From the NCBI GenBank assembly GCA_025284135.1, contig GCA_025284135.1_3646.2: a stretch of DNA of 41,948 nt. One strand, written 5' to 3'. The position numbers and the translations under genes were made by a program. The first letter of the stretch is position 1, and each line of letters begins with the position of its first letter. The notes beneath the pieces are model-generated. The model was not told the DNA's origin, ran no database searches, and saw only the letters and a list, made by a program, of their open reading frames with translations. Shown piece by piece: positions 17,852-26,381 of this stretch. The stretch comes from a phage.

Positions 17852-18082
17852 ATGAGTCATAACTCCAAGTGGAAGGATCTTGGTTTTGCAAGTCGGGCAG
17901 AATATATTGGTTGGCTTTGGTTCAACGGTCTGACAAACGATATTAAAATGTATGATGATGTTTATTATGACGAGTATACAGGTAAAATTATAAATATCTC
18001 TGTAGAAGAGGATACCTTTATCCAGCAAGATACTGATACCTGCCTTGATAAATACGTTAATGAAGTGGAGGAAGCAAATTGA
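17852..18082 (+). CDS. hypothetical protein
   Basis: ATG 17852 after AAGGTGG RBS; stop overlaps nrdA start. Confidence 0.4.
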   Translation: MSHNSKWKDLGFASRAEYIGWLWFNGLTNDIKMYDDVYYDEYTGKIINISVEEDTFIQQDTDTCLDKYVNEVEEAN

Positions 18083-20394
18083 TCACCAAGGTAATTAAAA
18101 GTAACGGATGTGAAGTGGCATTCGATCCAGAACGTTTAAATAAGGCAGCTATTTTCGGTGACGACGGTAACGGCAATTGGTCACATATTGCACTGGATGC
18201 ATACAAACGACTGTATGATGGATGTACAACCAAAGAAGTTAACCAAGCTATTATAGACTCCTGTGTTAGCCGTAAAGACGAAGCACATTCCCGTATGGCT
18301 GGTCGTGTTCTTATTGGTCAGATTTATAAAGAGGCTTTTGGAGGGTTTACAAAGATCCCTTCCTTACCATCATTTTACAACGACATGGTTGAGAAAGGGT
18401 ATTGGGAGGATATGGGTTATAGCTTTACCGAGTTAAACACTTTAGGCACTGTTATTGATCACAGTAAAGATCTCGGTTATGGCTATGCAGTCCTTAAACA
18501 GTTTCGCGACAAATACGGGATCAAGGATACTCTTAAAGACACCTTGTTTGAATCTCCTCAGATGATGTTTATGGGGATAGCAATGGCTGTCATGAAGAAT
18601 ATGCCGAAAGAACGTCGTATCAACGATGTTGTAAAATTATACACTTATCTGTCCGACTTAAAGATCAATGCCCCGACACCGTACTTAAACGGGCTGCGAA
18701 CAGGTAAGACAGGGTATGCATCTTGTTGTGTAATAAAAGCTGACGATACAGCAAAATCTATTGGTGTGGCACGTGAAGTTGCGTACACAATGACGGTTAA
18801 CCAGGCAGGTATCGGCTACTACTTATCCTCAAGATCTGCAGGCGATGGTGTTCGTGGTAACACTATTAAACATATGGGTAAGATTCCATATTATCGAGGT
18901 ATTGATGCTGGTGTTAAGGAGAACAGACAACAATCACGTGGCGGTTCTGCAACAGTATCATTCCTTGCACTGGACCCGCAGATTGATGAGCTAATCCGTT
19001 TGAGAAACCCTATGACTGTTGCTTCAAAAAGAATCAACACCATGGACTACTCCATCGGTATTAATAGGTCGTTTATCAACCGTGTGGCTAAGAATTTGGA
19101 TTGGATGCTTGTTTCTTATAAGCACGCGCCTCAACTGCATGAGGGTATCTTCACCATGTCTATGGAGGAGTTTGATGCAGAGGTTGATCGTATTGCTAAA
19201 GATGACAGTATTCCTAAAACATGGATCCGGGCCAGAGATCTTGCTGTTGAACTGATCACGCAGCGTACTGAGGTGGGAAGGCTGTATGTATACTGGACAG
19301 ATGAGATGAATAGACATACACCTTTTAAAGATGTGATCTATTCAAGTAACCTGTGTGCAGAAATAGCCCTCCCGACAAAAGGCTATTCAGATATGCGTAA
19401 TATCTTCAAGTACGATGCTGATGATGGAGAGGTTGCATTGTGCTTCCTGTCATCTCTTGTAGCTGGGAGGGTTACTCCAGAGGAGTATGAGGATGTTGCA
19501 TACTATACGGTGCTTATGATTGACAATGTTATGGAAATCATGACATATCCGTATGAAAATATGGAAAGCACAGTTAAAAAACGCAGATCCATCGGGGTTG
19601 GCCTTACCAATGTTGCACATTTTATTGCCAGCCACAAGGTTACTTACGGATCTCCTGAAAGTAAACAGCTCGTTCACGATCTTGCAGAACTTCACAGCTA
19701 CAGCTTGCATAAGGCAAGTTTACGGTTGGCAAAAGAGCGTGGTGTCTGCGAGTGGATGCATAAAACAAAATATCCAGAAGGTTGGTTACCAATCGACACC
19801 TATAACAAAGAGGTCGATAGCGTGGTGAAAGATCCTTCTCTTAAACAGGATTGGGAAGGGTTACGTAAAGAAATCGTTGAAAATGGTGGGCTACGTAATA
19901 GCGTTCTTGAAGCATATATGCCTAATGAAAGCTCTTCGCTGGCAACAAACACCACTAACGGGGTTTATCCTGTCCGTGAGCACATTATCTTTAAAAAGTC
20001 GCCACAAGGGCAGGTGCTGTTTATCGTTCCTGACTATGATGAGTTGAAAGAGTATTACACTTCGGCTTGGGACGTTGATACTAACGACATGATCGATATG
20101 TATGCTGTGATTCAAAAATTCACAGGTCAGGCAATCAGCGCGGATTTATACATAGACTACACCAAGTTGAAAGATGGTAAAATTTCAATGAAGGAGCAGC
20201 TAGGGTACCTTATCCGTGCCACTAAATTCGGAATGAAGACATGGTATTATTTAAACTCTAGGGTTGGTGCTGGTGACTCCTTGGCAGAGGAACTTCATGC
20301 CAAGAAACAGGCTGAAGATGAAACCAGAAAGAACTATCCTTTGATTGCAGATAGTTCAGTTGAAGATCCGTATTGCGAAAGCTGTGCACTATAA
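18079..20394 (+). CDS. nrdA: ribonucleotide reductase class Ia large subunit
   Basis: N-terminal ATP-cone (VIKSNGCEVAFDPERLNKA), active-site SNLCAEIALP, C-terminal CESCAL; 771 aa. Confidence 0.9.
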   Translation: MITKVIKSNGCEVAFDPERLNKAAIFGDDGNGNWSHIALDAYKRLYDGCTTKEVNQAIIDSCVSRKDEAHSRMAGRVLIGQIYKEAFGGFTKIPSLPSFYNDMVEKGYWEDMGYSFTELNTLGTVIDHSKDLGYGYAVLKQFRDKYGIKDTLKDTLFESPQMMFMGIAMAVMKNMPKERRINDVVKLYTYLSDLKINAPTPYLNGLRTGKTGYASCCVIKADDTAKSIGVAREVAYTMTVNQAGIGYYLSSRSAGDGVRGNTIKHMGKIPYYRGIDAGVKENRQQSRGGSATVSFLALDPQIDELIRLRNPMTVASKRINTMDYSIGINRSFINRVAKNLDWMLVSYKHAPQLHEGIFTMSMEEFDAEVDRIAKDDSIPKTWIRARDLAVELITQRTEVGRLYVYWTDEMNRHTPFKDVIYSSNLCAEIALPTKGYSDMRNIFKYDADDGEVALCFLSSLVAGRVTPEEYEDVAYYTVLMIDNVMEIMTYPYENMESTVKKRRSIGVGLTNVAHFIASHKVTYGSPESKQLVHDLAELHSYSLHKASLRLAKERGVCEWMHKTKYPEGWLPIDTYNKEVDSVVKDPSLKQDWEGLRKEIVENGGLRNSVLEAYMPNESSSLATNTTNGVYPVREHIIFKKSPQGQVLFIVPDYDELKEYYTSAWDVDTNDMIDMYAVIQKFTGQAISADLYIDYTKLKDGKISMKEQLGYLIRATKFGMKTWYYLNSRVGAGDSLAEELHAKKQAEDETRKNYPLIADSSVEDPYCESCAL

Positions 20395-20401
20395 TTTTAA
20401 A

Positions 20402-20420
20402 GGGGCTTCGGCCCCATTTT
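20402..20420 (+). terminator. GC hairpin with UUCG loop between nrdA and nrdB (partial terminator / RNA stability element)
   Basis: GGGGC-ttcg-GCCCC followed by ATTTT. Confidence 0.3.
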
Positions 20421-20432
20421 AGAGGTAGAATA

Positions 20433-21521
20433 ATGGCTGTATTTAATGCTGAGAACACCGCTCATAAAACTGGTGACTATCCGCTGTTTCTGGGACAGCA
20501 AATGGGTATGTACGACTCTATCAACAAAAAATATCCGCAACTGTTCGAACTGTACAAAAAACAAAAAGAACAAGACTGGGCAGAGGATGAAGTGGATTTG
20601 TCGCAATCTATTTCAGATTTTGTAACATGCTCCAAGTCAACTTATGATGTAATGGTGCAGACCTTGATGTGGCAATGGGAGGCTGATAGCGTTGCGGCAA
20701 GATCGATCATCTGCCTCTTTTCACCATTCATCACTAATAGTGAGCTTTTCACTCTATTGATGAAACAGTCAGAGATTGAAGTTCTTCACGCACTAACTTA
20801 CTCAGAGATTGTTAGACAATGCCTCCCCAATGCCCGTGAGATTATAGAAGAGATTCAGGAAAACCAAAACGTTCTGAGCAGATCTGGCGTTATTGTCAAA
20901 TACATGCAAGAGCTTGAGGTTATTGGTGCAAAATACCGACTGGATCCTTCTAGTGTTGAAGAAGATATTGTGCGGAAATGCATTCTTAGAGCGCTTTTTG
21001 CACTTTTAGCTCTGGAAAGTATTGAGTTTATTGCAAGTTTTGCATGCACTTTCGCAGTAGCTGAACAGGGTATTTTTGTTCAGGTGGCACAGCTTGTTCA
21101 AAAAATCATGCTTGACGAAATGCTACATTCGAAAGGTGATTTTGCCATCATTGATATCCTGCTTAACGATCCAGCATGGGAGAAAAGCTTCCTGGAGATA
21201 AAAGGGGAGTTAAAAGAGATTCTTGATGAAGTACGAACCAAGGAGTACGGTTGGAGCGACTATATTTTCAGCGAAGGAAGAGCGATTATAGGCCTTAACT
21301 CACCGTTGCTTAAAGAATGGGTTGACTATAACTGCTCACCGATTTATGATTACTACGATATCGACAAAGACTTTGTGCCGCCAACAAAGGACCCGCTACC
21401 GTTTATGCAGGTGTGGATGAAACCTTCATTGCAACAGACGGCGAACCAAGAAATGTCGAACACTGACTACCGAGTCAACACAACTGTTAACGACGCTGAA
21501 GAAGAAATTTGGGAGTTTTAA
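20433..21521 (+). CDS. nrdB: ribonucleotide reductase class Ia small subunit
   Basis: Ferritin-like di-iron helices (ESIEFIASF etc.); ATG at 20433 with RBS; ORF-track start 20373 is inside nrdA. Confidence 0.9.
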   Translation: MAVFNAENTAHKTGDYPLFLGQQMGMYDSINKKYPQLFELYKKQKEQDWAEDEVDLSQSISDFVTCSKSTYDVMVQTLMWQWEADSVAARSIICLFSPFITNSELFTLLMKQSEIEVLHALTYSEIVRQCLPNAREIIEEIQENQNVLSRSGVIVKYMQELEVIGAKYRLDPSSVEEDIVRKCILRALFALLALESIEFIASFACTFAVAEQGIFVQVAQLVQKIMLDEMLHSKGDFAIIDILLNDPAWEKSFLEIKGELKEILDEVRTKEYGWSDYIFSEGRAIIGLNSPLLKEWVDYNCSPIYDYYDIDKDFVPPTKDPLPFMQVWMKPSLQQTANQEMSNTDYRVNTTVNDAEEEIWEF

Positions 21522-21524
21522 TAC

Positions 21525-21803
21525 ATGAGCTGTGAAAAATCTTTTTTCTTTATTATTTACGGTAAAGATAACTGCCCACATTGTGTAAGAGCAAAAGAAT
21601 TTGCAGTCAGTAAAGGTCTACCTTTTGTATATAAGACACTTGGCGAGGGTTACACAAAAGAAGAGCTTATTGAGAAGTGCAGTCCAATCGTACCCAGAAC
21701 GTTGCCGCAGATCTTCTTAGAAAGTAATCTTGAAAGTGCCCATATAGGCGGTGCCGATGATTTCATCTCTTTTGTTAAGAATGGTTTTGGAGAGAAAAAG
21801 TGA
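21525..21803 (+). CDS. glutaredoxin (NrdC/NrdH-like)
   Basis: CPHC redox motif and HIGG motif resembling T4 NrdC. Confidence 0.7.
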   Translation: MSCEKSFFFIIYGKDNCPHCVRAKEFAVSKGLPFVYKTLGEGYTKEELIEKCSPIVPRTLPQIFLESNLESAHIGGADDFISFVKNGFGEKK

Positions 21804-22960
21804 AAGTTGTAAAACGGGACGGTAGAGAAGAGGTCTATAACGGAATTAAGGTGATCAAGGCGGCAGAGTCCGCCTTACTTGAGTCTGGACATACTGAAGA
21901 AGAAGCTTACCGGATCGCCTGCGCGGTTAATGAAGTTGTTGCTAACAATCTACCAACCGACCAGTGCACGATCTCTGTAAAAAATATCCATATCCTTGTT
22001 GAAGACGCTCTTATGGATATGGGTTTAAAATGTGCAGCCAGAGAATACATCCAGTATAGGCAGACAAGAGATAATAACAGAGAGGCAGGTGGAAAACTGC
22101 TTGCAGATATTAGTGGCTTCTTGGATCGCACTTGTGATGAATTTACAAAAGAAAACGCAAATAAGCCTACCAATCATGTACACACTCATCGTGACCTGCT
22201 TGCAGGCATCCTTAGCAAACACCTTGCATCAACACAGATCCTGCCAGACCGTGTCTCAGAAGAGCACAATAAAGGCTTCATCCATGTGCATGATCTTGAC
22301 TATTTGATCAGTCCGTTAACAAACTGTTGTTTGGTAAATTATCCAGATATGTTGGAAAACGGATTCAACATTGGTAACGCCCATGTCAGTAAGCCGAAGT
22401 CAATAGGGGTTGCAACAACAATCCTTAGCCAAATCTCTAGTGCAGTAGCTAGTGCTCAATATGGAGGTCAGACTATGAGCCATATTGATCATTATCTGGC
22501 ACAGTATGCTGAAGCGACCTATGAGAAGAACCTTAAATTTTGCCAGGAACATTGGTTGCCAGATGCTGAGACTGTTGCAATGCAAATGACAGATAAAGAC
22601 GTATTTGACAGCATGCAGACTTTACTCTATCAAATCAATACGTTAACTTCTGTCAACGGGCAAACTCCATTTATCACATTAAGTTTAGGACTGGATACCT
22701 CGGCCTTTGGTAGAATGATTACCAAAAATTACTTGAAAGTCCACAAAATGGGTCTTGGTGAAGAACGTATCACACCTGTGTTCCCTAAAGTGCTGTTCTT
22801 CCTAGAAGAGGGTGTCAACATGAACCCTGGAGATCCTAACTATGATTTGAAACGATTAGCTCTGGAATGCTGTGCAGAACGTATCTACCCTGACTTCGTA
22901 TCTGTACCACTAAATAGAAAAGTGACAGGCTCGACAGATGGCAAAGTAACGAGCATGGGT
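21800..22960 (+). CDS. nrdD: anaerobic ribonucleotide reductase class III, exon 1
   Basis: ATP-cone N-terminus, NPGDPNYDLKRLALECCAERIYPD...KVTGS matching NrdD; exon predicted to end at U 22960 (...KVTSMG). Confidence 0.85.
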
Positions 22961-23722
22961 AAACTATAACTGCTCATGTAAAATCTATCTAAACGGGGAA
23001 ACTCCAGAACGGACAACCCCGTGCTAAACGTAACAGAACTCCTGACCAAGAGGAGTCCTGAAATGAGAAAACAAATTCGTGATTTTGAAGGTTATGAAAT
23101 TGACGAGATGGGCAATGTTTATTGCACCCGCTACGAAAATGAAAGAATTATTCATTCGTGGGAAGAGATAAACACAGGTTACCGTCTTGTCAGGATACGC
23201 AAGAACAAAAAGACTGTTTGCCTAAGGGTTCACAGACTTGTTGCTGAAGCGTTCTTACCAAATCCAGACAATTTACCCTATGTTAAGCACAAAGGGGACA
23301 ACAGGAAAGATAACAGTGTATACAACCTTGAGTGGGGAGCTTGCCCAGACAATACGCAAGAAGGATACAACAACAACTGTTATGCTTTTTACACAAGATG
23401 CCACGGTGTGAAAGCCACCAACAAATTAACTGGTGAGGTTTTCCACTTTAAAAGTCTGAGATGTTGTGCTGATGTTTTAGGAGTAGATAGAAAAAGAATA
23501 TCTGCTATCCTGAAACGTGGTGCGCCTAATAACTATGATTACGAGTTCTGTTACGAAATGCCTAACGACTAACCGTGATGAATGTAGCGGTGTAGGGTGT
23601 AAGCCGATGACACTCGAAATGGTAGACACACTAAGTGTGAAGATATAGTCTGATCTGCATGGGGACATGCAGCAGCACGTAAAGGTGCGGGGGTGGACTT
23701 GCGAACCACCCTGAACATAATG
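22961..23722 (+). mobile_element. group I self-splicing intron (T4 td/nrdD-like) carrying an HNH homing endonuclease ORF
   Basis: Exon ends in U; intron GCTCATG (22972-22978) pairs with exon CATGGGT (P1 with U-G); AAGATATAGTC at 23639-23649 matches conserved group I S element; intron ends in G at 23722. Confidence 0.75.
23063..23572 (+). CDS. intron-encoded HNH homing endonuclease (HNH_3 / NUMOD4-like)
   Basis: GNVYxxRYENERIIHSW...GYRLVRIRKNKKTVCLRVHRLVAEAFLPNPDNLPYVKHKGDNRKDNSVYNLEWG; ATG 23063 after AAGAGGAG. Confidence 0.8.
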   Translation: MRKQIRDFEGYEIDEMGNVYCTRYENERIIHSWEEINTGYRLVRIRKNKKTVCLRVHRLVAEAFLPNPDNLPYVKHKGDNRKDNSVYNLEWGACPDNTQEGYNNNCYAFYTRCHGVKATNKLTGEVFHFKSLRCCADVLGVDRKRISAILKRGAPNNYDYEFCYEMPND

Positions 23723-24700
23723 TGTAGAAGTTTCTTATCGAAATATAGCGACCCTGTAACAGGTGAGGAGAAATACCTTGGCAGATTTAACTTAGGCGTT
23801 GTTAGCCTTAACCTGCCAATGATTGCGGCAAAAGCTAAAACGGAAGGTGTTGATTTCTTTGCAGTTCTTGACGAATACCTGGATCTTGCATACGAGGCTC
23901 ATCTTGTAAGGGTTAACCGTCTAAAAGGAACAAAGGCAGGGCAGAACCCTATCATGTGGTGTGAAGGCGCTCTTGCTCGCCTGGATCCTGAAGAGAGTAT
24001 TGATAAACTCTTCTATGACGGGTACGCTTCCATTAGTATTGGGTATATCGGTGTGTATGAAACCTGTCAGATTTTGGGTAGGGAGGGTGACAAGGCTTTA
24101 GCTCTTGGAATCCTTCAGCACATGAGAGATGCTTGTGAGCGATACAAGAAGGAAAGTAGACTAGCGTTTAGCTTATACGGCACCCCTTCTGAGAGTCTAT
24201 GCTATAAAGCTGCAACCTGCCTGGATCGTGAATATCCTGAAGTGTTGAAGCACGAGCATGAATATCTCACCAACAGTTTCCATCAGCCAGTATGGATCAA
24301 TAGCTCTCCTTTTGATAAGTGGAAGTATGAGGAAGGTTTTGCTATGATCTCCTCTGGTGGCAACATCGGATACGTAGAGACACCAAATCTGAAAAACAAC
24401 TTAGATGCTTTGGAAGCTCTTGTGGATTTCGGATATAAACACATTATGTATTTTGGTATTAACCAACCTGTGGATAAATGTCTCAAGTGTGGTTTCTCTG
24501 GTGAGTTCAGTGCAACAGCTAAAGGGTTCTGCTGCCCTGCGTGCGGATGCCACGATGAACGATATATCTCAGTGATCCGAAGAGTGTCTGGCTATCTCTC
24601 CAGCCCGAACAGTAGACCGTATAACACAGGTAAACAAGCAGAGGTTATCGAACGTGTTAAACATATTGGGAATGTAGACTGTTGTCCGTTGAGTAAATAA
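23723..24700 (+). CDS. nrdD: anaerobic ribonucleotide reductase class III, exon 2
   Basis: Begins CRSFLSKY; contains zinc ribbon CLKCGF...CPACG and glycyl-radical motif RRVSGYL. Confidence 0.85.
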   Translation, partial: CRSFLSKYSDPVTGEEKYLGRFNLGVVSLNLPMIAAKAKTEGVDFFAVLDEYLDLAYEAHLVRVNRLKGTKAGQNPIMWCEGALARLDPEESIDKLFYDGYASISIGYIGVYETCQILGREGDKALALGILQHMRDACERYKKESRLAFSLYGTPSESLCYKAATCLDREYPEVLKHEHEYLTNSFHQPVWINSSPFDKWKYEEGFAMISSGGNIGYVETPNLKNNLDALEALVDFGYKHIMYFGINQPVDKCLKCGFSGEFSATAKGFCCPACGCHDERYISVIRRVSGYLSSPNSRPYNTGKQAEVIERVKHIGNVDCCPLSK

Positions 24701-24711
24701 GGAAAGAGATT

Positions 24712-24741
24712 GAGAGCAAGGATGCTCTCATTTTTGTTTTT
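24712..24741 (+). terminator. rho-independent terminator
   Basis: GAGAGCA-aggat-GCTCTC followed by ATTTTTGTTTTT. Confidence 0.5.
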
Positions 24742-24809: not shown

Positions 24810-25742
24810 ATGAGGAGACTAACAACCGAAGAGTTTATAGAAAAAGCTCAGACTATACATGGTGACAAATATGATTACTTCAAAGTGGAGTATAAAAACA
24901 ACAAGACACCTGTGTGTATAATTTGTCCTGAGCACGGTGAGTTCTGGCAAACCCCTGTGGCACATGCTTTCAAGAAGCATGGTTGTCCAAGGTGTGGTGG
25001 GTCAGCGAAAAAGAACACTGAAGAGTTCATAAAAGAGGCTATGGCTGTTCATGGGGACAAGTACGATTACTCATTAGTCAAATATGCGAACATGAGAACG
25101 CCTGTAAAAATTGTTTGCCCTGAACACGGTGTGTTTGAACAATACCCTGAAAACCACTTATACCAAAGAAACGGCTGCCCAGAGTGCTATGACTTAAGAC
25201 GTGGGCAAAGTCAAGCGTTAACCCATAAGGAGCATGCTGCAATTATCCACAAAGCCAACCCAGACATAGAAATATTAGAGAAAATTGCCAATGATAACAC
25301 AAAAGTGCAATGTAGGTGCAAAATTTGTGGGTATAAGTGGTCTGCTAAACCTAATAACCTAAAAAGTGGTCGTGGCTGCTGTAAATGCGCACAAAATGGA
25401 TTCTTATCTCATGAGTACGGTAAACTCTACATTATGGTTGATGACTTAGAAGTGCCAACACTTATGAAAATCGGTGTATGCGTTAAAATGCACAGGAGGA
25501 AAAATGAGGTGCTTAACAGTGCTCGTAAATCTGGCGCAGGTGTCCACACTCTTCACGTAGTAAAAACATGGAGCGGATCAACTCAAAACATGGTAGATTT
25601 AGAAAAATCTGTGCATAAGGCCTTCAGCAAGTATAAAATAAACTTTCCTGTAAAATTTGACGGTAGCACTGAGTTTTTCTACTACAGGCCTGAAGTGTTT
25701 GACACGGTAGAGGAGGTATACAAGAAGATTTGTGGTAAATGA
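24810..25742 (+). CDS. T5orf172-domain (GIY-YIG superfamily) protein with N-terminal tandem zinc-ribbon repeats; putative mobile endonuclease
   Basis: C-terminal GKLYIMVDD...KIGVCVKMHRRKNEVL...GSTEFF resembles T5orf172; three repeats with CPEHG...GCPxC. Confidence 0.5.
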   Translation: MRRLTTEEFIEKAQTIHGDKYDYFKVEYKNNKTPVCIICPEHGEFWQTPVAHAFKKHGCPRCGGSAKKNTEEFIKEAMAVHGDKYDYSLVKYANMRTPVKIVCPEHGVFEQYPENHLYQRNGCPECYDLRRGQSQALTHKEHAAIIHKANPDIEILEKIANDNTKVQCRCKICGYKWSAKPNNLKSGRGCCKCAQNGFLSHEYGKLYIMVDDLEVPTLMKIGVCVKMHRRKNEVLNSARKSGAGVHTLHVVKTWSGSTQNMVDLEKSVHKAFSKYKINFPVKFDGSTEFFYYRPEVFDTVEEVYKKICGK

Positions 25743-25794: not shown

Positions 25795-25911
25795 ATGTCT
25801 ACAGGTATTTATAAAATTTGCAAGTGCGGATGTCGTTGCAATCTTCGTTGGTGCAAGGCACTGGACGATTTTATTTGGCATTGCCCTGAATGCGATGCGG
25901 AGTATCTATGA
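25795..25911 (+). CDS. small cysteine-rich protein (38 aa), translationally coupled to nrdG
   Basis: Strong RBS TAAGGAGG; MSTGIYKICKCGCRCNLRWCKALDDFIWHCPECDAEYL; stop overlaps nrdG ATG (ATGA); below ORF-track length cut-off. Confidence 0.4.
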   Translation: MSTGIYKICKCGCRCNLRWCKALDDFIWHCPECDAEYL

Positions 25912-26381
25912 ACATTGTCGGATACACAGAAATATCTTACACCGAAGGGCCAGGTATTAGAACTGCCTTGTGGGTATCTGGGTGCCCACACGCTTGCCCT
26001 GGTTGCTTTAATCAGGCATTTTGGTCAAAAGATAAGGGGAGAGAGTTCACCGAAGAAGATTTGCAGAAAATTTTGTCGGATTTAGACAATGAATCTGTAT
26101 GCGGTATTTCTTTACTTGGTGGAGAGCCTTTGGCTACTTATAATGAGCCAGGTATTATAGACCTTATGAGGAGAATTAAGGAAAAGTTTGGTGACAAGAA
26201 AACTATTCTTGTGTATACTGGGTTCACATTTGACCATATCTCTAGTGATGTTCTTAAACTGGCTGATATCATCATTGACGGTAAGTATGTAAAAGATTTA
26301 CCAACCAAGAAACCGTTCCGAGGCAGTGATAACCAAAGAATGTTTAAAAAAGTATCGGGCGGTTGGGTCCAGGTAGACTAG
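25908..26381 (+). CDS. nrdG: anaerobic ribonucleotide reductase activating protein (radical SAM)
   Basis: GPGIRTALWVSGCPHACPGCFN cluster-binding motif; ATG 25908; ORF-track start 25890 is likely too far upstream. Confidence 0.85.
   Translation: MNIVGYTEISYTEGPGIRTALWVSGCPHACPGCFNQAFWSKDKGREFTEEDLQKILSDLDNESVCGISLLGGEPLATYNEPGIIDLMRRIKEKFGDKKTILVYTGFTFDHISSDVLKLADIIIDGKYVKDLPTKKPFRGSDNQRMFKKVSGGWVQVD

Follow-up and report, generated by a model that had tools for sequence, protein, structure and literature searches.

How is the class III ribonucleotide reductase (RNR) gene nrdD of an rV5-like phage to be read when it appears as two open reading frames (ORFs) with a third one lodged between them? 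The locus lies in a 41,948-nucleotide (nt) stretch of phage DNA (contig GCA_025284135.1_3646.2 of NCBI GenBank assembly GCA_025284135.1), the whole of which we call the window. Its source is an rV5-like myovirus (Vequintavirus), and the nrdD region is 94–98% identical to many Escherichia phages of the genus. With its insert included, nrdD occupies 21800..24700 (2901 nt), and the ORF map places 21800..22969 and 23693..24700 on either side of an ORF at 23021/23063..23572. A preliminary description of the sequence had reported the same arrangement, with an HNH ORF in the middle. We conclude with high confidence from the sequence that nrdD is interrupted at 22961–23722 by a group I intron, mobile and self-splicing and of the T4-like IA type, which separates the Gly387 codon from that of the catalytic finger-loop cysteine, Cys388. 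We infer splicing from the anatomy of the insert together with its homology to known introns, and on similar grounds the ORF inside it is expected to encode an active endonuclease.

The boundaries of the insert can be read from relatives that lack it. Many sister phages possess an uninterrupted nrdD, which covers 73% of the query and measures exactly 2139 nt, that is, 2901 minus 762. Joining U22960 to T23723 in the window yields an open frame of 2139 nt and 712 codons that reads ...KVTSMG|CRSFLSKY... across the junction (...AGCATGGGT|TGTAGAAG...). This spliced sequence is collinear with the intron-less alleles of phages PMBT16 and I29, likewise 2139 nt long, whose junction reads GGGT|TGCCGGAGTTTTCTTAGCAAATACAATGAC. 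The 30 bases before the junction are identical, and over the entire gene only 59–75 of the 2139 nt and 8–10 of the 712 residues differ. Since the spliced join agrees with PMBT16 and I29 but no longer does so when either boundary is moved by a single base, the limits of the insert are fixed exactly at 22961..23722 (plus strand, 762 nt). The join and insert length proposed in the preliminary description, along with the restored GCRSFL motif and the 712-residue product, are borne out by these two alleles. The insertion is in phase 0 and its position equals Gly289|Cys290 of T4 NrdD. The finger loop of RNRs is the site of the critical conserved radical cysteine (PMC4493059). Within the insert, the frame of exon 1 meets an in-frame TAA at 22967..22969 (plus strand), the third intron codon and ahead of the guide sequence, so that ORF 21800..22969 ends with SMGKL and a stop. 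At the 3′ splice site the intron closes with a terminal guanosine (omega-G) at 23722 (plus strand), in a tail (...TGAACATAATG) that it has in common with the T4 td intron.

Splicing would restore a complete enzyme. Exon 1 (21800..22960, plus strand; 387 codons, 1161 nt, last base U22960) encodes the ATP-cone and the N-terminal half of the NrdD barrel, matching the Pfam ATP-cone and positions 1–263 of the 562-position NRDD profile. Exon 2 (23723..24700, plus strand; 325 codons and the stop) opens with the codon for Cys388 and matches NRDD positions 264–562 and Gly_radical, the glycyl-radical domain. The NRDD profile is unbroken over the junction, with neither loss nor overlap, and the class III NrdD architecture is complete once spliced: a contiguous fold, the finger-loop cysteine, the glycyl-radical domain and the ATP-cone. 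Global alignment of the spliced translation with T4 NrdD, a check suggested in the preliminary description, gave 273 identities. MGCRSFL is aligned, PMGCRSFL at the junction is common to both proteins, and Cys388 falls opposite T4 Cys290, which we take to be the finger-loop radical cysteine of the T4 enzyme. The ratio of nonsynonymous to synonymous substitution rates (dN/dS) in the exons, measured between intron-plus and intron-less alleles, is 0.07; by this comparison neither exon is disrupted and strong purifying selection acts on both.

Searching with the insert by BLAST returned three classes of match: about 29 records with the entire element, shorter ORF-less forms at the same place in other phage genera, and, for their 3′ core, the T4 nrdD intron (at 80% identity) and the td intron (72%). 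Over the entire core, identity to the T4 nrdD and td introns is about 71%, so that the likeness to T4 introns noted in the preliminary description holds. The td intron compared was the RB9 copy. When the window was aligned with Phapecoctavirus nepoznato (which has the ORF), Justusliebigvirus pEC-M2929-1AR.1 (ORF deleted, 290 nt) and T4 nrdD, the core proved collinear on both sides of the ORF. The J6/7-P7, J8/7-P7′ and P9 segments (P, paired helices; J, the segments joining them) match the T4 introns nearly base for base. By the boundaries inferred in this analysis, the T4 introns measure 1033 and 1016 nt; in the T4 record nrdD is a join of two pieces, and the intron named there is of group IA ('group 1A') and encodes I-TevII. 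The features of subgroup IA are present, namely P7.1 and P7.2 between P7 and the 3′ strand of P3, along with homology to the T4 td and nrdD introns. T4-like introns are usually placed in IA2 of the Michel–Westhof classification. Judged by these alignments, the insert belongs to the group IA type and is a homologue of the nrdD and td introns of T4. A recent transfer from a T-even phage was also considered and is unsupported, identities to all T4-type cores being uniformly about 70–76%.

The RNA fold was modelled without P2, as in the T4 nrdD intron, and all core helices are intact in the window copy (coordinates on the plus strand throughout). P1 pairs 22954–22960 (CATGGGT) with the guide sequence 22972–22978 (GCTCATG) in seven pairs, including the U22960-G22972 wobble at the 5′ splice site, and 22961–22971 forms the L1 loop. 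This helix and the terminal G23722 had both been noticed in the preliminary description and stand as given there. A candidate P10 strand, CTATA at 22964..22968, pairs with TGTAG at 23723–23727, the first five bases of exon 2. P3 joins 22984..22989 (TCTATC) to 23621–23626 (GGTAGA), and P4 (22993–22998 with 23017–23022) encloses P5 (23003–23005 with 23011–23013). P6 (23023–23024 with 23560–23561) is followed by P6a (23029–23041 with 23543–23555), a long helix that brackets the ORF; the Rfam alignment of an ORF-less homologue has the same P6/P6a. The R element lies at 23560–23572 and holds the 5′ strand of P7 (23567..23571, GACTA), whose partner is 23646–23650; the ORF stop, 23570–23572, is inside it. 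P7.1 (23572–23576 with 23587–23591), P7.2 (23595–23600 with 23610–23615) and the P8 hairpin (23627–23631 with 23635–23639) come next. The S element AAGATATAGTC, made up of J8/7 and the 3′ strand of P7, is present as the preliminary description stated, at 23640–23650 rather than the 23639–23649 given there. P9 (23655–23661 with 23666–23672), P9.1 (23675–23678 with 23685–23688) and P9.2 (23691–23696 with 23706–23711) complete the model. Unconstrained minimum-free-energy folding, run on an ORF-deleted construct and on the full 784-nt precursor, recovers P1, P4, P5, P6a, P7, P8, P9, P9.1 and P9.2.

Covariation was measured over nine introns: those of the window, nepoznato, pEC-M2929, Avunavirus 19-1-2, Felixounavirus REP8, Vibrio phage F99, T4 nrdD, RB9 td and Tequatrovirus SP21535 nrdD. 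They were aligned with MAFFT blind to structure, with the P6 loops and, where needed, the P9.1 loops removed. In the 12-helix model of 62 pairs, which includes the P3/P7 pseudoknot, 97.1% of cells are standard pairs, a figure subject to some bias since the model was read from the window sequence, and 33 of the 62 pairs have changed on both sides, a count free of that bias. None of 500 shuffles reaches any of five measures of the model, and sliding the partners by 1–3 columns leaves 35–44% of cells paired and at most 10 compensatory pairs. Compensatory changes are richest in P3 (five of six pairs, with 100% of cells paired), P7.1 (four of five), P8 and P9.2; they affect three of six pairs in P7.2 and one in P7, which is 100% paired, while P1 is 93.7% paired. 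In REP8 and Vibrio F99, P10 has 8 base pairs (bp), adjoins the guide sequence and covaries with exon 2, pairing with differing exon-2 starts, TGTAGAGC and TGCCGATC. The helices are thus far beyond chance, by covariation and by homology to the experimentally characterised T4 introns.

The intron ORF (23063..23572, plus strand; 510 nt, 169 residues) encodes a putative I-HmuI-like HNH homing endonuclease. A Shine-Dalgarno sequence, GAGGAG at 23050–23055, stands 7 nt ahead of the ATG at 23063, in agreement with the separate ribosome-binding site claimed earlier, and deposited homologues are annotated with the identical start. The protein aligns over its full length with I-HmuI (PDB 1u3e, E=1.8e-7; residues 3–166 with 4–172) and matches phrog_59, 'HNH endonuclease', at E=2.8e-32, which gives substance to the HNH label of the preliminary description. 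The HNH histidine and both asparagines align with His75, Asn87 and Asn96 of I-HmuI. The layout has two domains, an N-terminal nuclease and a C-terminal NUMOD/helix-turn-helix DNA-binding region. Against the nepoznato copy dN/dS is 0.044, with dS saturating, and the ORF is therefore taken to be maintained by selection.

ORF and ribozyme are interwoven at both ends. A predicted hairpin at 23034..23060 (plus strand; local fold −10.6 kcal/mol) buries the Shine-Dalgarno sequence and overlaps the 5′ strand of P6a with its 5′ arm; in the full-length predicted fold, a 9-bp P6a is stacked on the 6-bp core of this hairpin. At the other end, the last ten or so codons (..YEFCYEMPND and the stop) double as the 3′ strands of P6a and P6, J6/7 and the 5′ strand of P7, with the stop in P7. 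We infer from these coordinates that the ORF can be read to its end only if the ribosome unfolds the catalytic core, so that translation and splicing would compete on one molecule. The distant homologue in Vibrio F99 has an identical EMPND-stop C-terminus (L010, about 1790–1818; window, 23543..23572), since the conserved RNA core dictates the peptide. A sigma-70 promoter scan for the intron ORF gave 5 sites against a shuffled mean of 6.9; there is no excess and no promoter is claimed.

The intron is carried by a minority of otherwise near-identical genomes, with about 29 intron-plus records versus about 99 with an uninterrupted junction (93 at ≥95% identity). The same nrdD site is occupied in Phapecoctavirus, Justusliebigvirus, Avunavirus, Felixounavirus and one Vibrio phage. 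The introns at this Gly|Cys site in Felixounavirus REP8 (L012, 1384–1699), Vibrio phage F99 (L010, 1173–1991) and Avunavirus 19-1-2 (L013, 601–852) comprise one with an ORF remnant, one with an HNH ORF and one without an ORF, and in all three nrdD is annotated as split. ORF-less forms of the insert at this site measure 252–316 nt. Some 18–25 'Campylobacter phage' records (MG0656xx, host Campylobacter jejuni) are 97–99.9% identical to the region, intron included; the host labels of these unannotated records look doubtful.

Comparing four intron-plus with two intron-less alleles reveals a sharply bounded tract in exon 2. There are 26 fixed differences, none of them in exon 1 (1161 nt), 16 at exon 2 positions +3 to +35 and 10 in the other 943 nt. 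The tract (23725..23757, plus strand, 33 nt) includes three amino-acid changes among its 16 differences. Its first bases create P10, and the remainder coincides with the region bound and nicked by I-HmuI-type enzymes. With a recognition sequence of about 24 bp, these enzymes place a nick in one strand, 3 nt downstream of the site of insertion (PMC3017599, PMC3428280; the two reviews are at odds over which strand it is), and co-conversion of exon sequence accompanies homing (PMC2988022). The tract may thus be co-converted donor sequence, and may also protect the intron-plus allele from the endonuclease. Its donor was not identified, other intron-plus lineages having only the first 14–17 nt in common (TGTAGAAGTTTCTT..). 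A search with the spliced intron-plus junction found the tract contiguous with exon 1 in one phage only, V18, whose tract-carrying nrdD has a 2-nt scar and other frameshifts. As V18 is the sole intron-less carrier, the tract is considered to travel with the intron. The marks of a mobile intron are all present, namely sporadic occurrence at one exact site, an ORF under selection and a flanking tract, and the patchy distribution and the 16 fixed exon-2 differences together point to mobility.

Several observations weigh against a functional, mobile intron. Rfam Intron_gpI (RF00028), the covariance model that the preliminary description had proposed as a check, gives no match at the gathering score anywhere in the window. 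The copy yields only a partial match at 23567–23672, of 33.2 bits against the 50 required (E=1.9e-6), and in E-value mode the 42-kilobase window holds no other group I signal. P10 of the window lineage is short, at 5 bp, and a 3-nt gap lies between it and the guide sequence. In the endonuclease, the position of I-HmuI Asp74, which we take to be a metal ligand, is Lys in the window ORF and Cys in the Vibrio homologue, and the active site may differ from that of I-HmuI there. The Pfam HNH_3 match scores 19.7 bits with a cut-off of 24.8, and the I-HmuI NUMOD-like match (residues 124–151) 20.2 bits with a cut-off of 27. Finally, nrdD is dispensable in aerobic culture, and a non-splicing copy could persist for a time.

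The lack of a covariance-model hit had been named beforehand as a result that would speak against an intron, and it does so only superficially. ORF-containing copies, that of the window among them, give only partial Rfam matches of 33–39 bits, whereas the model assigns 105.3 bits to the T4 nrdD intron and 70.4 bits to L008, a natural homologue that lacks the ORF and has 89% core identity. The low score of the window copy is due to the 510-nt ORF in the P6a loop, which splits the core, and not to the absence of a core. This bears on the alternative that survives best, although we hold it to be highly improbable: that the intron has decayed and no longer splices, leaving nrdD a pseudogene in the window phage. 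The dispensability of the gene in aerobic culture and the sub-threshold score would suit such decay, and V18, with its frameshifts and unannotated gene, shows that nrdD can decay in the lineage. However, the exons of the window phage are intact with a dN/dS of 0.07, every core helix is in place, the segments J6/7-P7, J8/7-P7′ and P9 still match the T4 introns nearly base for base, and the ORF insertion accounts for the Rfam score.

Remoter still is a truly split gene, in which a free-standing HNH cassette cut nrdD in two and the products assemble without RNA splicing. GenBank records do show two or three 'anaerobic ribonucleoside-triphosphate reductase' coding sequences (CDSs) with an HNH gene, an in-frame GTG (23693) is available upstream in the exon 2 region, and there is a functional precedent in nrdA of Aeromonas phage Aeh1, split by mobE (PMC3653736). 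Yet the 252 bases outside the ORF make up an entire group I core that shows strong covariation and homology to the self-splicing introns of T4, and the ORF-less versions (252–316 nt) at the same site show the insert to be more than an endonuclease cassette. The break, moreover, falls inside the finger loop, between the glycine and the catalytic cysteine, and no ribosome-binding site was noted by eye before GTG 23693 (gtaaaggtgcggg), where no formal scan was made. An intein or other protein-level intervening sequence, for which one might look since RNR genes are frequent intein hosts (PMC3653736), is already refuted by the reading frames, as exon 1 runs into TAA three codons into the insert and the HNH ORF starts independently in a different frame, and the insert has RNA structure and lacks intein motifs.

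If 22961–23722 is the self-splicing mobile intron that we propose, the nrdD pre-mRNA would fold into P1 and P3–P9.2, and exogenous guanosine, bound in P7, would attack after U22960, held in P1 by GCTCATG through the U-G wobble. The freed 3′-OH of the exon would then attack after G23722, aided by the short P10 (CTATA with TGTAG), and the product would be an mRNA for the intact 712-residue NrdD. The TAA three codons into the intron would halt ribosomes coming from exon 1, and translation of the ORF and folding of the ribozyme should be mutually exclusive on any one RNA molecule. By analogy with I-HmuI, the enzyme would nick the intron-less nrdD of co-infecting phages a few bases into exon 2, and recombinational repair would copy the intron together with a short flanking stretch of exon 2.

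The closest known counterpart, the T4 nrdD (sunY) intron, resides in the same host gene and belongs to the same family, with 80% identity in P7–P9. It has the identical GCTCATG, no P2, both P7.1 and P7.2, and a similar 3′ tail (TGAACAnAnTG). However, it is inserted at AYE|YEV (nt 538, phase 1) and not at Gly387|Cys388 in phase 0, and it encodes the GIY-YIG enzyme I-TevII after P9, whereas the window intron carries its HNH ORF in the P6a loop. The T4 td intron (I-TevI) shows about 70% core identity, an identical P3 strand (TCTATC) and an identical 3′ end (GAACATAATG), and it too has its ORF in the P6 region with the stop codon in the conserved AAATGCCTAACGAC core segment. It differs in its host gene (thymidylate synthase), the presence of P2, its guide sequence and its GIY-YIG endonuclease.

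On the protein side, I-HmuI, I-HmuII, as well as I-BasI, are HNH nicking endonucleases encoded in group I introns that lie in Bacillus phage DNA polymerase genes. The window ORF is reminiscent of I-HmuI in being collinear over its full length (169 versus 174 residues), with an N-terminal HNH and a C-terminal NUMOD-like region, and in being encoded in a phage group I intron. Unlike I-HmuI, to which its similarity is low, it has Lys in place of Asp74, and its target gene and host clade are different. Within the same subfamily, other Vequintavirinae introns (rV5 terL; Certrevirus CB7 terL, DNA polymerase, nrdA and nrdB) share the architecture of intron plus HNH ORF in other host genes, and splicing of the CB7 introns in terL, DNA polymerase, nrdA and nrdB has been demonstrated in vivo by reverse-transcription PCR (PMC7344957).

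More than one site in nrdD has been used by such introns. In T4 the nrdD intron follows nt 538 of the coding sequence, at about residue 276 of the window protein, and identity of the two sites is rejected, the T4 site being about 110 codons upstream in window numbering. In the sister phages navn (257 nt, ORF-less; L005 1161–1417) and phita32 (797 nt with a 534-nt ORF; L004 1161–1957), a further group I intron follows Gly287; its P1 pairs AACGGT with GCCGTT, and it scores a sub-threshold 29–30 bits in Rfam. The window lacks this intron (empty site 22660|22661). The T4, Gly|Cys and Gly287 sites together make at least three nrdD intron sites in these phages. In V18 (L014, KY683736; about 1500–1613 and upstream), nrdD is unannotated and intron-free and bears the exon-2 tract of the intron-plus type. 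Both intron sites are marked precisely by 2-nt scars (deletion of coding nt 861–862; GGGT|TGT changed to GGGATATGT), and there is a 1-nt deletion at 1089. Either the introns were lost imprecisely, or the scars are an artefact of assembly or editing.

The guide sequence GCTCATG is common to introns at two non-homologous nrdD sites, the T4 site and the Gly|Cys site. The exon ends there, ..TATGAGT in T4 and ..ATGGGT in the window and five other phage groups, both fit GCTCATG. The endonucleases at the two sites are unrelated, GIY-YIG or HNH, and sit in different loops. In T4 nrdD, only two 6-mers are compatible with GCTCATG, and these are exactly the two sites. One intron lineage may therefore have moved between nrdD sites by way of its guide sequence, through reverse splicing or ectopic insertion, and not through its endonuclease. 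We put this forward as a speculative and on balance unlikely scenario. It is only suggestive because chance alone would give each gene about one compatible 7-mer and the intron cores are all about 70–76% identical to one another.

We found no description of the Gly|Cys-site nrdD intron in the searchable literature, that on rV5-like phages included. For rV5, introns were reported in the terminase only (PMC3606486), and the Felix O1 paper reports none (PMC3185647). rV5 itself has the uninterrupted nrdD allele type (rV5_ev records). In the BASEL collection, Vequintavirus nrdD is annotated as a two-piece join for an upstream intron. The Gly|Cys-site intron, which has up to now mostly gone unannotated, belongs to a very well known kind, and the finding leaves current understanding unchanged. 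Most records of rV5-like phages, Phapecoctavirus, Justusliebigvirus, Felixounavirus and the Vibrio phage break nrdD up into two or three 'anaerobic ribonucleotide reductase' fragments, accompanied by an HNH gene or a hypothetical protein, where one joined CDS with the intron marked would be correct. The T4 td/nrdD intron family also gains a well-resolved member outside the T-even phages, with variants handy for study: with the ORF, with the ORF deleted and at different sites of one gene. It further provides an example of insertion at the most conserved codons of an enzyme, directly before the thiyl-radical cysteine. The sharp 33-nt exon-2 tract predicts where an uncharacterised I-HmuI-like enzyme would bind and cut. 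Such endonucleases have recently been tied to interference between co-infecting phages (PMC11620839).

nrdD is part of a nucleotide-metabolism block that comprises a ThyX-like gene, nrdA (18079..20394), nrdB (20373..21521), a glutaredoxin gene (21525..21803) just before nrdD, and, after it, an endonuclease-like ORF (24810..25742, plus strand), a gene for an NrdG-like radical S-adenosylmethionine activase (25890..26381) and, listed last, phoH. A scan for tRNA genes found none. The product of the 24810..25742 ORF has 310 residues with DUF723, CapR, treble-clef zinc-finger and T5orf172 domains, and matches phrog_681 'endonuclease' at E=3e-65. Lying between nrdD and the NrdG-like gene, the ORF looks like a free-standing homing-endonuclease-like insertion, and its position equals that of mobC in T4. 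PMBT16 lacks it and has hypothetical proteins annotated after nrdD instead; in nepoznato, nrdG directly follows nrdD. Between nrdD and this ORF, directly 3′ of the nrdD stop at 24711..24740 (plus strand), lies a terminator-like hairpin, TGAGAGCAAGGATGCTCTCA followed by TTTTTGTTTT.

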